Of a stretch of DNA of 64,000 nt, positions 12,301-18,300 are shown piece after piece. The stretch lies in the NCBI GenBank assembly GCA_965153355.1, contig OZ231126.1:48112001-48176000 (forward strand), written 5' to 3'. This DNA is from Flaccisagitta enflata. Its lineage: Eukaryota. The stretch's first letter is position 1, and each line of letters starts with the position of its first letter. The notes beneath the pieces were generated by a model. It was not told the origin of the DNA. It saw only the letters and a program-made list of their open reading frames with translations, and did no database searches. The position numbers were made by a program, and so were the translations under genes.

Positions 12301-15300
12301 TTCAAGAAACTTCACATTTTAACGGAAATTAAAAGGAGCACTTAACCGGCTAAAAATGTTCAATACAAAAAATACAAAATGGAAAACGATCCTTATTCAG
12401 ATTTCGCGCAATCTACTCCACTTTTGCCTTCTTTGCTTGCATCTTGCATCTTGTTTTTGCATCGAAAATATTTGCGAAAAACTTCGCCCGTGCTTCCGGT
12501 TTTTGAGGGCCAGAGTCCTGAGAGAATCAGTCTATTTGTTCAAATGGGAAATGTTTAAAATCACTGACAACCGAATTGGTTGGGATTTAAAATCATAGCA
12601 CCTTAAAACGTTTTGAAAATGAGCACATTCTCTCTGCGGGATTGTTGACAGTTTGGATCGAATCAACAAGCTCCTTGTCCTGTTGAAACTCTGGGATGTG
12701 ATCCCAAGGAGCATTCTGGGTTAACCATTTCCCGTAATTTGGACAAAAACGTTCTAAAAACAGGATTGAACGCTCAGTGACAAAGTCTTGAAGCTCGTTT
12801 TTTGAAGATATCTCGGGCAGCAATGGTCTTCCGCGATTCAAAGCAGGGGTAACAATGGCGATGGATGATGGTTTGAGACTAAGAATTCTTGACGCGATTC
12901 TCGATTTGGTGTCGTCGTCGACGTTCTTGGAAAAGAGTGATGCAGCAATTTGGCCGGGTTCCAACGACCATGATTGACGATTCATTTGGACTCGTAAATT
13001 GACACAAATGGATTTTGCAAGTGTGCTTGCCCTGAATCAGAATGGCAAACCTTTACAATCACCTTCATCTGCATTATCATAGCTGAAACATTGATGTTGT
13101 TGTTGTTGTTGTTGTTGTTGTTGTTGTTGTTGTTGTTGTTGTTATGGTTGTTGTTGTTGTGGTTGTTGTTGTTGTTGTTGTTATTATGGTTGTTGTTGTT
13201 ATGGTGGTTGTTGTTGTTGTGGTTGTTGTTGTTGTTGTTGTTGTTGTTATGGTTGTTGTTGTTATTATGGTTGTTGTTGTTGTGGTTGTTGTCATTGTCG
13301 TTGTCGTTGTCGTTGTCGTTGTTGTTGTGGTTGTTGTGGTTGTGGTTGTTGTGGTTGTTGTTGTTGTTGTTGTTGTGGTTGTTGTTGTTGTTGTGGTTGT
13401 TGTTGTGGTTGTTGTTGTGGTTGTTGTTGTGGTTGTTGTTGTTGTTGTTGTTGTTGTTGTTGTTGTTGTTGTCGTTGTGGTTTTCGTTGTTAGTAGTGTT
13501 GTTGTTGTTGTTGTTATCATCTTTGTTATTGTTTTTGTTGTAGTTGTAGTTGTTGTTTAGGCTGTTGTTTCTGTTTTTTAAGTTGTTGTTGTCGGTGAGG
13601 TTGTTAATGTCAGAGAGGTCATTGTTTTTAAAGAAGTTGTTTTTTAGTCGTGTGCTACGCGACTCTACACCCCGCTACGTTGGTCGGTCAGTCGGTCGGT
13701 CGGTGATCCCCTTTTTACTTTTTTTGGCCTTCTCCAGCACTGCCCCTCCCCACCCCTGCGCAAGCGACTTGGGTAGCCGTGTATCCGGCCTTGTTTTATC
13801 GTTATCGTTACCGTTCGTATTTGTCTAAACATTTCAGCATGTCTAGTTCGATCTTTGCAGCATCGACGACGAATGGACTCCGGAACCAAGGGATGACGTA
13901 TATGTATGAAATGAAGCGGACAACTTCAAAGACGGCATTCAGCTGATCCTCGGGAATCTCAATCTGATCCTGCAGCAACCACGCGAGAAGTACGTTGATG
14001 GCGTAGCCCATCCAACGGGCTTTGTCGGTCCGTGGCGGCTTCCTCAGTTTCAACTTCTTTGTGATTCCCAAAACAAACTAATTTGATGGTGGTTGAGAGA
14101 GAGAGAGAGAGAGAGAGAGAGAGAAAGAGAGAAAGAGAGAAAGAGAGAAAGAGAGAAAGAGGAAGAGAGTGAAAACGCTATTCCTAACTTCATTGTTGAT
14201 GGATTGCTGATTTTCAAATATACTTGGATCAAATTGAAGAGGTAGCGATAATCATCGCGCGGAAGCGTTCCATCTTTTTCGGCCGTCGAATTCATCTTCT
14301 CCGCCAGTTCGACAACTTTTTCCCGCTGATCTCTGAAGAACTTTGTACCGGGCGGTAGAATATGAGGACAGCTTTCGTCCAGACTTTCTGGAAATCTGCC
14401 GTCTTCGTGATGCTTCCATACGCGTTCGCAGAGCTCGTCTGTAGGTGCTGTGGTCGGCCCAGGGAATGCGGTCCTCCAAACTGCGTTCAGGTCCCTTTCT
14501 AATTTGTGTCGTCGGCACGCAAAGTAGACGAACGGCAATAGACCGGGTGCTTCTTTTTCAATTCGAATACACGCCCCTTGCATTGAATTATATGAATTTG
14601 TATATATTTTACTTTTTATATACGAATTTGAATGAATTGTTTATTTCATTTTTCTGATTTCTTTTTTTTTTCTTTTTTTTTTTTGCATAGCATGGATCAC
14701 TTTAAAGGGAATTGTCATACCACGGGCCCATCCTGTGTTTGCTGCACAGGTATCGAAACAAAGACCCGCAACTTTGTCGAATATTCCCAATTCTTTAAGC
14801 TTCTCAATCACGACTCGTGCAACTTCTTCACCTTTTTTAACAAATAGCAACGTATATACAACATGACAGAATGACTGACCAACAGATGCATCAGTGAATG
14901 AGAAATGGAGTTGAGTTGGATGCATATCAAACAAAGTTGTTAAAAGAGCAGATGAGTGGGCAGGGGCATCCAGCCCCCATCCACACCCCAATCCCCACCC
15001 CACATGTAAACACATATAGAAGGTATCTTTAAGTTTAACGCTCGTTTTTCCACTTTTCGACTTGATCACCACGGACCAACGGACCAATGGACCAACGTAC
15101 GGACAAAGCCTCTTATAGAGTTTCATGTCCACAACTAAAAAGTGCAACCATATTTTACCGGTTCCATTATTGACTTCAAAGACGCCCACATGAAATTCCC
15201 CTCCTAATCCCGTCACAGATATTGACAAGTGTTCGACGAATCTTGCCCCATTCTTCTTCCCCAATTTGCACTTGGCACCGTCGAAGTGAACAATCGCTCT

Positions 15301-18300
15301 TTGTGGAAACTTCTGAGCTTTAATTCTTTCAACCGCCTCCGCTCTCACTTCCTCGACCATTCGTTGGACGGATGCATAGGAGATTATTTGATCATTTGGA
15401 TCTCCACCACCCTTTACAAACATGGTGTGCAAAAGGTGATGCGCATCACGGATGGATAGATGACGCCAGTCCATTTCTTCCACCAAACTGCGAATGTATG
15501 AGCGAGTGTCACTCCACTCTAAACGAACGGTTTTCGATTTAGGCGTCGTTGGCTCGGCTGGTTGAACATAATCTTCATCTTTAACATCGTCATCATTCCA
15601 AAAACCGTCGTAAATGAGGCCTTTGATGTTTTGCTGACGCTCGCATTCTTCATAACCGTCGACTGCGTTGGAGCAACTGGGACCTGAAAGTGCTTCCTCA
15701 TTTGCGCATCCCAAAAGGAAGAGTGAGGGATCAATCTCCAGATTCGCTGGTTTCTTAAAAGCAGCTGTACGCGTACGAGTGGAGTTGGGTGAGCAGGATG
15801 GACATTTCAAATCCGGTATAGTAAGGCCAAGGCACTCCGAGCAGATTCCCTTGAGACTCTGTTAAGACGATAATTTTGTTTGTTTTGCTTTTATTGGTTT
15901 TGTTACTTAAGCAAATTTGTTCATGCGTCTGTCAGAAACGCATCTCTATAAGAGGGTTTGTCCGTCCATCCATCCGTCCGTCTGTCCGTCGGTATGTCCA
16001 TTACGCCTGTGCAAAAACCGCGTTTTCCGGCCGTTGCTGGCTACAGAGAGATCCTACACTAAATCTATCGATCGACAAACAGGTTTTGAGCGAGATATCT
16101 GTCCTTCCATGTATCTGACATGTCTATCGCCATAGTCAATACACGCAAGGACACAGTCAGGACGCATCTTTGCCCGGTCAGGCTTGTTTCATTACTGTTT
16201 GAAACTATAGCATTTTCATCTGTTTCAACCTGAAAGTCTGTCTGTCTGTCTGTTTATCTATCTGTCCATCCATCTATCTGTCTAGGTCTGTCTTTTTCTC
16301 TGCCTGTCTGTCTGCTTGGCCGTCCCTCCGCTCCTCAGTCTATCTCTGTCTCAATCTCTCTCTCTATCCGTGCGTCTGTCCGTCAGTCTCTCTCTCTCTC
16401 TCTCTCTCTCTCTCTCTCACCTCAGCTTCCTCTTCAGATTCCCTTCTTCGCTTCTTCTCGCTTTGTTCTTCATTCTGTTTGCGTTGCTCATATTCCACGG
16501 TCTGAGGATCTGGATGTTTGACGTAACCAGGAACTGCGCCACCTTTGCCGTATGGTAGTATGCAAAATTCGAACTTCATCTTGGCCGTCCATTCTTCAAT
16601 CATTGCAGCGTAAGATGGTCGCTCTTTATGTGACCATGAATTCAGGCGTCTTGGTTTGAACATAATTGAAATATACAATAAAGTGCAGTGGTTGAGTCAT
16701 TCATTAGAATTGAAATCAGCTATTGAATGAAAATCTTTTTTTTACTTTGCTTCGTGGTAGATGTCCTTAACATCGTCCCTGAGACGACGTTCCGTTTTTG
16801 AAACTGAGGTTGATGGATGTTTTTGCAGCACCCGCTCCACAACCGCGTCGGCAGCGTCATTCAAGGACTGACCAAGACTTATTAAAAAAAGAAAAAAACG
16901 CAAAACTTGCCGATTAGATGGCGTTTTTGGCCCCTTCAGATCCTCCACGTGAGAGAGATCGCCAAGTGGGCCTGATTCCGGAAGATCCACACTCTTAACC
17001 TTTTTCTTTTTTTCGGACATCTTGAAAGATTGACGGATGATGAGAGGAAGATGACAAACGACCACAAGTAGATGAAAATTCTACATTCTCTTCAACTGGG
17101 CTACCTCCATAATTCTAGATATGTAAAAGATATAAGTCTTCAAAGCTAACTGGTTGAAACCTCAAAATCAATATCAACCACCACAGCTTTCATTTAGCAT
17201 TTTTTGACCAAAACTCCAATCTACTTCTGGTTTTTTGGCTATTATCATTGGGTTGCAACATAATTTGACCAAAAAAATTGATATTTCGATTTTCATCTCC
17301 ATTTCTTTGGAAGAAATAGCTCAACAACATGAGATTGGTCAAACACCTGAAATACACAATTTTCATTGTACTTTGTGATGTACTGTAGCGCCATTTCTGA
17401 AGGAAACTGGACAAAATTCATGAGCTTCTGAAAGATTTTTTTGTGCTTTTTTGAATGAGATCAGCCAAAAATATTTTCTCCCAACTGCGTAAAAGTTATG
17501 AGCTTTCAAAGTTGAATGGTCAAAACCCCAAAATAACCAACAACCACAACAACTGTAATTTGGCATTTTTCAACCAAAATTCCGATTTAGATTTGGTTTT
17601 TTGGCTAAAATCATCAAGTTACAACATAATTTGACCAAAAAATTGATATTTCGATTCTTATCTCCATTACCTTGGAAGAAATAGCTCAACAAAATGAGAT
17701 TGGTCAAACACCTGAAATACACAATTTTCACTGTACTTTGTGATGTCACTGTAGCGCCATTTCTGAAGGCAACTGGATAAAATTCATGAGCTTCTGAAAG
17801 ATTTTTTTGTACTTTTTTGAATGAGACCAGCCAAAAATATTTTCTCCCAACTGCATAAAAGATATGAGCTTTCAAAGTTGAATGGTCAAAACCCCAAAAT
17901 CACCAACAACCACAACAACTGTAATTTGGCATTTTTCATCCAAAATTCCAATTTAGATTTGGTTTTTTGGCTAAAATCATCAAGTTACAACATAATTTGA
18001 CCAAAAAAATTGATATTTCAAATTTTCGTCATTTTTTACGACCACCTCCATCAGGACCTGAATTTTGGCCAATTTGACCCCCTTGCCCCCACCCCATGGG
18101 GCACCCCCCTCACCCACCCACCCCACTACCCTCTTACATGTTTTTGCTTCCCAATGAGTCCAAAAAATATGCTTATTCATCAAAAACATGCTAGTAAAAA
18201 AAAATTTAAAGTTGACAGGTCACCATCAGCCTTGGCTCATTTTGGGGCCATTTTGACAAGCTTCTATGAGGTGGTGTACTCACAGGACCACTTTTGGAAG

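Follow-up and report, generated by a model that had tools for sequence, protein, structure and literature searches.

A candidate autonomous hAT-like DNA transposon with seven introns in Flaccisagitta enflata, and a recent copy with altered ends

RESULTS

An eight-exon transposase gene lies between long terminal inverted repeats

A 64,000-nucleotide (nt) stretch of the Flaccisagitta enflata genome (contig OZ231126.1, positions 48,112,001 to 48,176,000; here called the window) carries on its minus strand a transposase gene of eight exons and seven introns, enclosed in an element with long terminal inverted repeats (TIRs). A first-pass annotation, made from the sequence alone, had placed this gene at 12413..17020 and described an intact D-D-E and CxxH transposase between near-identical TIRs, with repeats accumulated in its introns. 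The TIRs do bracket the gene, and the element as a whole is larger than that interval. Its parts are as follows.

10066..18397, minus strand: whole element, ~8332 bp (about 8.3 kb), limits in register with sister copies
10069..11337, plus strand: 3' TIR, left in the window, containing a 366-bp tandem unit
10433-11513, on the 3' TIR side: array of the 366-bp unit, 3.0 copies, with degenerate remains to ~12012
17123..18394, minus strand: 5' TIR, right in the window, with 2.5 copies of the 366-bp unit
17020-16746, minus strand: exon 1, with the ATG at 17020; matches the N-terminal LPS/T..VL region of homologues
16649-16421, minus strand: exon 2
15859..16420, minus strand: intron 2 (562 nt), holding GA and GACA microsatellites; a dispersed repeat is nested at ~15935-16190
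15858-15159, minus strand: exon 3, with a clade-specific CxxC...CxxC insert and the first catalytic Asp (HFDGA)
14832..15158, minus strand: intron 3 (327 nt), with an AAAAAAG acceptor and a nested dispersed repeat at ~14950-15145
14831-14721, minus strand: exon 4, with the second catalytic Asp (FDTCAANTG)
14576-14224, minus strand: exon 5, with CRRH (CxxH)
14078..14223, minus strand: intron 5, with a CT/GA microsatellite; 146-178 nt long among the three intact copies
14077-13812, minus strand: exon 6, with a KARW motif
13032..13811, minus strand: intron 6 (780 nt), with a (GTT)n/(AAC)n tract at 13091-13557 and a short repeat at ~13640-13800
13031-12602, minus strand: exon 7, with the catalytic E778 and a private D775N change
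12517-12413, minus strand: exon 8, with the stop codon

Joining the eight exons gave one frame of 2469 nt, encoding 822 amino acids (aa) plus a stop, as had been proposed. All seven introns are GT-AG, with lengths of 96, 562, 327, 144, 146, 780, and 84 nt and phases, from intron 1 to intron 7, of 2, 0, 1, 1, 0, 2, and 0. The protein contains D361 (HFDGA), D428 (FDTCAANTG), CRRH (residues 460-463), and E778 (VNNPAER), all of which align in a profile alignment with invariant columns of 42 full-length homologues from unrelated genomes or other sources. The profile of these homologues matched the joined protein with an E value of 1.2e-101 and showed no inserted block at junctions 3-7 (junction 2 lies outside its coverage), which argues that the joined open reading frame (ORF) is not a product of chance. 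The Cys pair CSEC...CPSC is present at residues 175-190; the annotation had called it N-terminal, but it lies at the start of exon 3.

The two TIRs (10069-11337 and 17123-18394) are 95.3% identical over 1273 nt (~1.27 kb), and the two arms differ by 1.3% across the outer 700 nt. The intron microsatellites, including the (GTT)n tract, were found where the annotation had put them, with GA/TC runs at 14095-14174 and 16387-16418. The nested repeats of introns 2 and 3 are dispersed high-copy host repeats, with 2914 and 3712 first-look candidates in the 794-Mb genome, 40 of which were scored for each repeat. The short repeat of intron 6 also occurs in introns of related families. Nonautonomous Helentrons are marked by subterminal inverted repeats, a 3' hairpin, and a T-run target. 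By eye, the intron repeats show T-runs, short palindromes, and GTCC/GTCG microsatellites, a resemblance to Helentrons only.

Three intact copies share the introns and their cargo

An exact 23-nt terminal pattern matched the genome 82 times (40 forward and 42 reverse; control, 0). We examined 54 loci of the family with 90 ends, 67 of which read TGAG (TGAG-GTGTATC) and 23 of which were altered in some way; the family terminus is TGAGGTG. Among the 36 copies with both ends, the target site duplication (TSD) was an exact 9 bp in 16, 10 bp in three, 12 bp in two with microsatellite flanks, 8 bp in one, and 6 bp in one. The other 13, among them the window copy and one copy that has one mismatch among 9 bases, had no TSD.

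The full 822 aa are covered at only 3 of the 54 loci: the window copy, C4 (L061), and C9 (L062), each on a different chromosome. In all three, the frame is 2469 nt long with a single stop, and the seven introns and the repeats inside them are the same, apart from microsatellites of varying length; both sisters, C4 and C9, have intact ends and TSDs. Because the three intact copies share these repeats across three chromosomes, the intron cargo of microsatellites and small repeats travels with the element. A further copy, C2 (L063), retains every exon yet is broken, and the remaining loci are internally deleted.

The window copy is 99.4-100% identical to C4 in its exons, with two synonymous changes and one replacement, and diverges from it by ~0.2-0.6% outside the microsatellite-rich introns. 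Compared with C9, identity is 97-100% in exons and 93-97% in introns, with 25 synonymous and 9 replacement changes; the ratio of replacement to synonymous substitution rates (dN/dS) is 0.10 (Fisher p 2e-10). Against C2, for exons 4-7 only, dN/dS is 0.039. Purifying selection thus acts between mobile copies. The sole amino acid difference from C4 is D775N, at a residue kept in at least 90% of the 42 homologues and probably changed by a CpG transition. Both sisters read VNDPAER, so that VNNPAER, previously listed as a possible mark of a new lineage, is private to the window copy among the intact three.

We made several further observations on the family. Outer TIR arms within one copy (10069-10770 and 17690-18394 in the window) are 0.3-1.3% apart in the window copy, C4, and C9 and 3.0% apart in C2. 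The same arm differs between subfamilies by 2.3-3.5% (to C9) and 6.4-7.3% (to C2). Since arms within a copy are more alike than the same arm between subfamilies, these values suggest that the two arms evolve in concert. One wrongly extracted C7 arm was left out of this comparison. The 3' TIR of C9 has about one 366-bp unit fewer. Identical flanks adjoin different family ends (L076/L201; L214/L226/L220; L219/L222), and several copies lack matching TSDs, possible signs of alternative transposition or of duplications at element ends. A nonautonomous family copy (L214:6016-6800) contains an exon-3-like fragment resembling the related L095 family. Exon 7 occurs twice, inverted, within single loci (L068; L013/L015), a foldback-like rearrangement of deleted copies.

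Introns 3-7 are kept in distant relatives

A search with exon 7 found 81 matches in the genome, down to ~30% identity, and we compared intron positions in 17 related loci, in which exon identity falls to as low as 27-35%. Intron 3 was found at an identical codon and phase in 14 of the 17, intron 4 in 15, intron 5 in all 17, intron 6 in 14 (three more being in phase and no more than three codons away), and intron 7 in 15, by a junction search that was centered on the expected sites and scored against the window protein and so favors agreement. Unguided tblastn alignments break at most of the same residues. Intron 1 was matched in eight loci and intron 2 in five, most of the others not being callable; four calls were discordant (intron 1 in L083 and L089, intron 2 in L093, and intron 3 in L080). 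The retention of position and phase in about a dozen families, to ~30% protein identity, indicates that introns 3-7 are ancient in the lineage. Together with the repeats shared by the three intact copies, this supports the first-pass view of a long-resident, recently mobile element with cargo in its introns.

The AAAAAAG acceptor of intron 3 had been singled out as atypical. C4, C9, and the diverged C2 all retain it, and its use restores a conserved GTG-E motif, which largely answers that concern; the RNA searched gave this acceptor no confirmation. Intron 3 of the window copy is a multiple of three in length and stop-free in frame; it contains stops in C9, and its length is not a multiple of three in C2. 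Regulated retention of this intron was considered and ruled out, the frame being closed in both of those copies.

After six unreliable calls were dropped, 89 introns of related loci remained; one of the window's three intron repeats was present in 18 of them and a microsatellite in 34. Their placement differs from family to family, so the cargo has been gained repeatedly and independently. Several related families have long TIRs of their own and TSDs of 9-10 bp.

In a tree, 18 rows from this genome formed one side of a branch against 56 homologues, with a Shimodaira-Hasegawa-like approximate likelihood ratio test (SH-aLRT) value of 100. A second tree placed them on one side against 40 homologues treated alike (SH-aLRT, 99; 16 short rows dropped). 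Both trees (LG+G4, quick mode; L070 left out) are unrooted and do not tell a sister position from a nested one. The CxxC-CxxC insert occurs in 10 of the 17 related host loci and in none of the 42 outside homologues. A new lineage, proposed earlier from the motifs, is therefore borne out at the level of the clade by the trees, this insert, and the ER-x-C signature described below. The motifs themselves point both ways: only part of the clade has HFDGA/HFDGV/HYDGV and ACRRH, and ACRHH, HFDGK, and VNDAAER are found in related families within this genome.

Outside this genome, we compared 81 public homologue loci, namely one viral contig and the best 80 of 522 metagenome relatives, a selection that favors intronless genes; at all four junction positions tested, 75 of them run on without a break. 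The viral contig (L101, from the viral collection IMG/VR) holds an intronless homologue with TAGGGTG termini. Among the best 150 exon-7 matches in public protein sets, 131 had the motif, and 34 of these share an ER-x-C signature. A Val stands exactly at the intron-7 donor, as if its GT were read through, in 32 of these 34 proteins versus 3 of the 97 others. Since the best identity of the 34 to loci of this genome ranges from 35 to 99%, the intron-bearing clade is wider than the families sampled here.

Three public proteins (P0001, P0266, and P0267; 56-59% identical to L086) have no break at the intron-4 position, and their gene calls are apparently bounded by the intron-3 acceptor and the intron-5 donor; theirs seems to be a family without intron 4. 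Near residues 700-708, L093 (6970-7190), L098, and exon 7 of L091/L092 contain extra noncoding sequence (an eighth intron or an insertion), and L080 and L095 have an in-frame insert of ~20 aa.

The transposase is hAT-like and allied to hATm

Pfam scans of exon peptides 1-7 (exon 8 was not scanned) returned no family, and scans of the 42 homologues returned none at E<=0.01, PF05699 included; two single weak matches in these scans were to unrelated families. A word-seeded search with exon 3 residues 100-233 yielded nothing among 144 candidates. A PDB sequence search gave two weak, irrelevant matches and no transposase. The exon 3-4 read-through frame matched unnamed arthropod-rich clusters in the ESM Atlas (best, 0.89), a lead only.

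Termini were more informative. In a heptamer scan, the gene was preceded by TAGGGTG and followed by CACCCTA in 35 of the 81 homologue loci, compared with 1 and 2 in wrong-orientation controls; an inverted-repeat scan of the metagenome homologue loci found no TSDs. Elements of hATm, a Repbase name, have a 5'-TAGGGTG terminus and a TSD of 8 or 9 bp, and hATm-6 has TIRs of 417 and 575 bp (Zhang et al. 2018, PMC6004678). The family resembles hATm in the termini of its homologues, in its 9-bp TSD, in its long TIRs, and in a terminus with five of seven bases equal, followed by a similar NN-TC-AAAA. It differs in that its terminus is TGAGGTG, its TIR is 1.27 kb with a 366-bp unit, and it has seven introns, the CxxC-CxxC insert, and a separate long branch. 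Related host families end in TGGGGTG, TAGCATG, TAGTATG, and TAGTCAG. The kinship with hATm is indirect, drawn through the homologue profile and homologue termini. Because of the TGAGGTG terminus, the lack of a PF05699 match, and the 9-bp TSD, we file the element as hATm-allied rather than as hATm or classical hAT.

An AlphaFold2 model of the homologue P0008 (mean predicted local distance difference test score, 87.7) describes the fold of a protein 28% identical to the window protein rather than that of the window protein itself. In Foldseek, Hermes took ranks 1-10, ahead of P and ISCth4. The VIA comparison with Hermes gave a Z score of 17.6 (root mean square deviation, 4.4; 361 residues aligned), and that with ISCth4 gave 11.2. 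P transposase stood below Hermes at rank 11 (E 2.8e-3), and the Pfam scans gave no THAP match. Like Hermes (PDB 6DWW and 4D1Q), the model has a DDE core, a helical insertion domain, and a CxxH motif, and these motifs align in the window protein. The flank-hairpin chemistry of Hermes (PMC6900584) fits the window junctions described below. The differences from Hermes are an identity of 11-13%, a TSD of 9 bp instead of the usual 8 bp, and the absence of a BED or PF05699 match.

The 9- to 10-bp TSDs, the very long TIRs with internal repeats, and the CxxH motif would also suit a Mutator/Foldback-type element (MULE) unrelated to hAT, and MULEs hairpin the flank too (PMC5499845). We consider this origin highly improbable: the homologues carry hATm termini, the P0008 model is nearer Hermes than ISCth4, and neither exon peptides 1-7 nor the 42 homologues gave a MULE Pfam match. 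No eukaryotic MULE chain stood among the structural matches listed. The 8-bp TSD of classical hAT elements (Ac/Buster/Tip) disagrees with a family that mostly has 9 bp. TSDs are 7 bp in hATw and 6 bp in hATx, and that of Kolobok is TTAA; the family's 9-bp TSDs of varied sequence match none of these. The element hATx-6 has been treated with 8 nt (PMC8721813). Several homologues carry the database label "Cc8K15.2-like," used for uncharacterized arthropod proteins. These proteins, 25-35% identical over exon 5, fall opposite the host rows in the tree.

Both ends of the window copy are altered

Sister copies predict a TSD followed by TGAGG at each end. The window copy departs from this at both ends, a double footprint that is new relative to the first-pass annotation, which overlooked the altered ends. 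Read towards the element, the left end is ATGCCTGT-AAC-AGG and the right end (minus strand) is AACAGGCA-ATGC-GG.

10057..10064, plus strand: left copy of the inferred 9-bp TSD (ATGCCTGTT), without its element-adjacent base
10065..10070, plus strand: left palindromic junction, made up of AAC and of an AGG that the element end shares; stands in place of the expected T|TGAGG and fits a hairpin footprint
18395..18398, minus strand: right palindromic junction, ATGC; stands in place of the expected T|TGA and fits a hairpin footprint
18399..18406, plus strand: right copy of the TSD, without its element-adjacent base

With ATGCCTGTT as the TSD, each end shows the flank short of its final base and then the first bases of that flank's reverse complement; AGG or TG microhomology joins this footprint in register to the element end. 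The base lost by one flank is supplied by the other, and neither junction alters length. The hairpin model is fitted by 3 of 255 possible 4-nt replacements on the left and 2 of 255 on the right (joint, 9e-5); it was fitted after the data had been seen, with a TSD inferred from the two flanks. Known hAT enzymes form flank hairpins, which host enzymes open and join (PMC6900584, PMC5499845, and PMC1978519). The junctions suggest that both ends of the window copy were cut and then sealed again at the original site, with terminal bases lost. Without its terminal TG and TGA, this copy would probably be immobile. A 7-bp TSD (TGCCTGT), which would have suggested hATw, was ruled out, as the sisters show TGAGG ends and 9-bp TSDs.

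Alternatively, the copy could be otherwise normal, its ends changed by ordinary point mutations, by a template switch in which the transposase had no part, or through an error of assembly. Neither junction changed in length, 23 of the 90 family ends are altered, and short quasi-palindromes preexisted at both junctions, all of which this explanation accommodates. It requires five substitutions in 24 junction bases, however, in a copy that is otherwise ~99.5% identical to C4 (99.4-99.8% over the TIRs). Further, both palindromes are centered on the flank base that touches the element, and each end predicts the base lost by the other. We regard such ordinary changes as unlikely, although with an appreciable chance. 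The other altered ends in L065, L204, L206, and L234 are short deletions beside an intact or trimmed TSD, not hairpins, and the rest are mostly short deletions or lie in rearranged copies.

Neighborhood of the element

Directly to the right of the element, at 20324-22357, adjoining 11-, 14-, and 10-bp tandem arrays span ~2 kb in total. Farther along the plus strand are what resemble ordinary host genes, for a VPS35-like protein (31037-39359), a short-chain dehydrogenase-like protein (39913-40698), and a phosphatidylserine-synthase-like protein (41354-45120). The introns of the VPS35-like gene likewise hold long tandem arrays, and a reverse-transcriptase-like C-terminal fragment lies at 30276-31022 on the minus strand.

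DISCUSSION

We conclude, with a probability of about 0.8, that the element belongs to a hAT-like lineage allied to hATm, as a cut-and-paste DNA transposon of autonomous type, and that the window holds a stranded recent copy, not a domesticated gene.

Several results weigh against this conclusion. RNA was searched over 14180-17122, a span that excludes junctions 5-7; 11 indexed runs held 5-10% of the words, and 4 of 12 runs were aligned. No spliced read was found at any junction in this span. From X12, a poly(A) run whose organism is not confirmed as F. enflata and of which 12.2 million reads (~6%) were used, 40 reads were placed, all on the intron-3 repeat; runs X6 and X7 gave no reads. One identical 175-nt contig from metatranscriptome X1 crosses the exon 3/intron 3 donor unspliced; it may represent DNA or pre-mRNA. 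The empty Pfam scans, the guided junction search, the TGAGGTG terminus, and the use of a homologue's fold count on the same side, as does the post hoc fit of the footprint model. That model also needs a first nick offset by one base, as in Hermes and Ac. Only one further altered end of the 23 (L235 left) is similarly clean, and the junction sequence rests on the assembly, in which an error is possible.

The RNA results, together with the open, stop-free intron 3 of the window copy, would also fit a locus at which the predicted splicing is absent, or intron 3 retained, and which is a fragmented pseudogene. We judge this very unlikely, as exons are conserved above introns among copies (in C9, by the identities given above), splice dinucleotides and phases are kept across families, and intron 3 is interrupted or out of frame in C9 and C2.

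The first-pass annotation had also raised early domestication, a state in which the window copy would serve the host and owe its introns and intact frame to being a host gene. A domesticated transposase is typically single copy and expressed, lacks TIRs, and sits at an orthologous locus in related species. Host-like introns, an intact frame, low dN/dS, and altered, probably immobilizing ends could be read in this way. The introns, however, are older than the window copy and are shared by mobile families; the family is multicopy with TIRs, as the 82 exact terminal matches show; and two sisters retain intact ends and TSDs. Moreover, the window copy is very young, as seen from its small distance to C4, its sole protein change strikes a conserved residue, the selection detected acts between mobile copies, and no expression was seen in the RNA searched. 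Domestication is thus very unlikely.

In the mechanism we propose for a hAT-like transposon, spliced mRNA would yield a Hermes-like DDE transposase that would bind the repeated TIR units, hairpin the flanking DNA, and insert the element with a 9-bp stagger. As movement takes place at the DNA level and the spliced protein is what selection sees, the introns would be near-neutral space, collecting microsatellites and small host repeats as host introns do and carrying these along. In the window copy, the transposase would have cut both ends, the host would have opened the flank hairpins, and end-joining would have returned the element to its place between the same flanks ("open-and-shut"), costing it the terminal TG and TGA; D775N would have arisen after re-joining.

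Ac-immobilized of maize is reportedly a transposase-coding element left in place with damaged ends. The term "open-and-shut" has been used for cleavage that leaves an element unfreed (PMC5224488). Such joints, in V(D)J recombination and as the "self-inflicted wounds" of Hsmar1/Tdr1, resemble Ac-immobilized and the window copy in that a coding element is kept in place with its ends damaged. The window copy differs in having centered flank palindromes at both ends without length change, in a natural genome.

Mobile transposases with introns and conserved boundaries are already known, and no new kind of system is described here. The intron-bearing plant CACTA transposases likewise form mobile families with ancient, conserved exon boundaries (Buchmann et al. 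2014, PMC4158355). They belong to another superfamily and have one to six exons with mostly intron loss, unlike the eight exons of this animal hAT-like clade, whose relatives sampled elsewhere lack introns. The same paper mentions introns of Ac and P and relays a proposal that intron loss eases horizontal transfer. In the literature searched, which did not extend to Repbase, Dfam, or subscription papers, we found no description of an intron-rich hATm-allied clade; this does not show its absence from print.

A broader interpretation is possible but tentative, and we think it rather less likely to be right than wrong. The families may form an undescribed intron-rich sister clade of hATm, in which seven introns and a CxxC-CxxC module were gained once and which diversified vertically in one marine animal lineage into a dozen still-mobile families (~30% protein identity), with introns limiting horizontal transfer. 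The window copy would then have immobilized itself in one step while still able to supply transposase in trans. For the group, its footprints would provide the first evidence from sequence that the flank is hairpinned.

An intact ORF with introns is no evidence of domestication, and transposon introns can ferry microsatellites and small repeats between chromosomes. Families of this kind, lacking a Pfam match, would be overlooked by homology searches or gene callers. The double footprint would be a compact natural record of cleavage chemistry and of the one-step loss of mobility of a coding copy. DNA transposons are often thought to persist through horizontal transfer. If the broader interpretation is true, introns tie this clade to the host spliceosome and limit such transfer. 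For a clade with five to seven fixed introns, with many families side by side in one genome and with outside relatives that lack introns, the opposite can be predicted: its transposase tree would follow the host tree.

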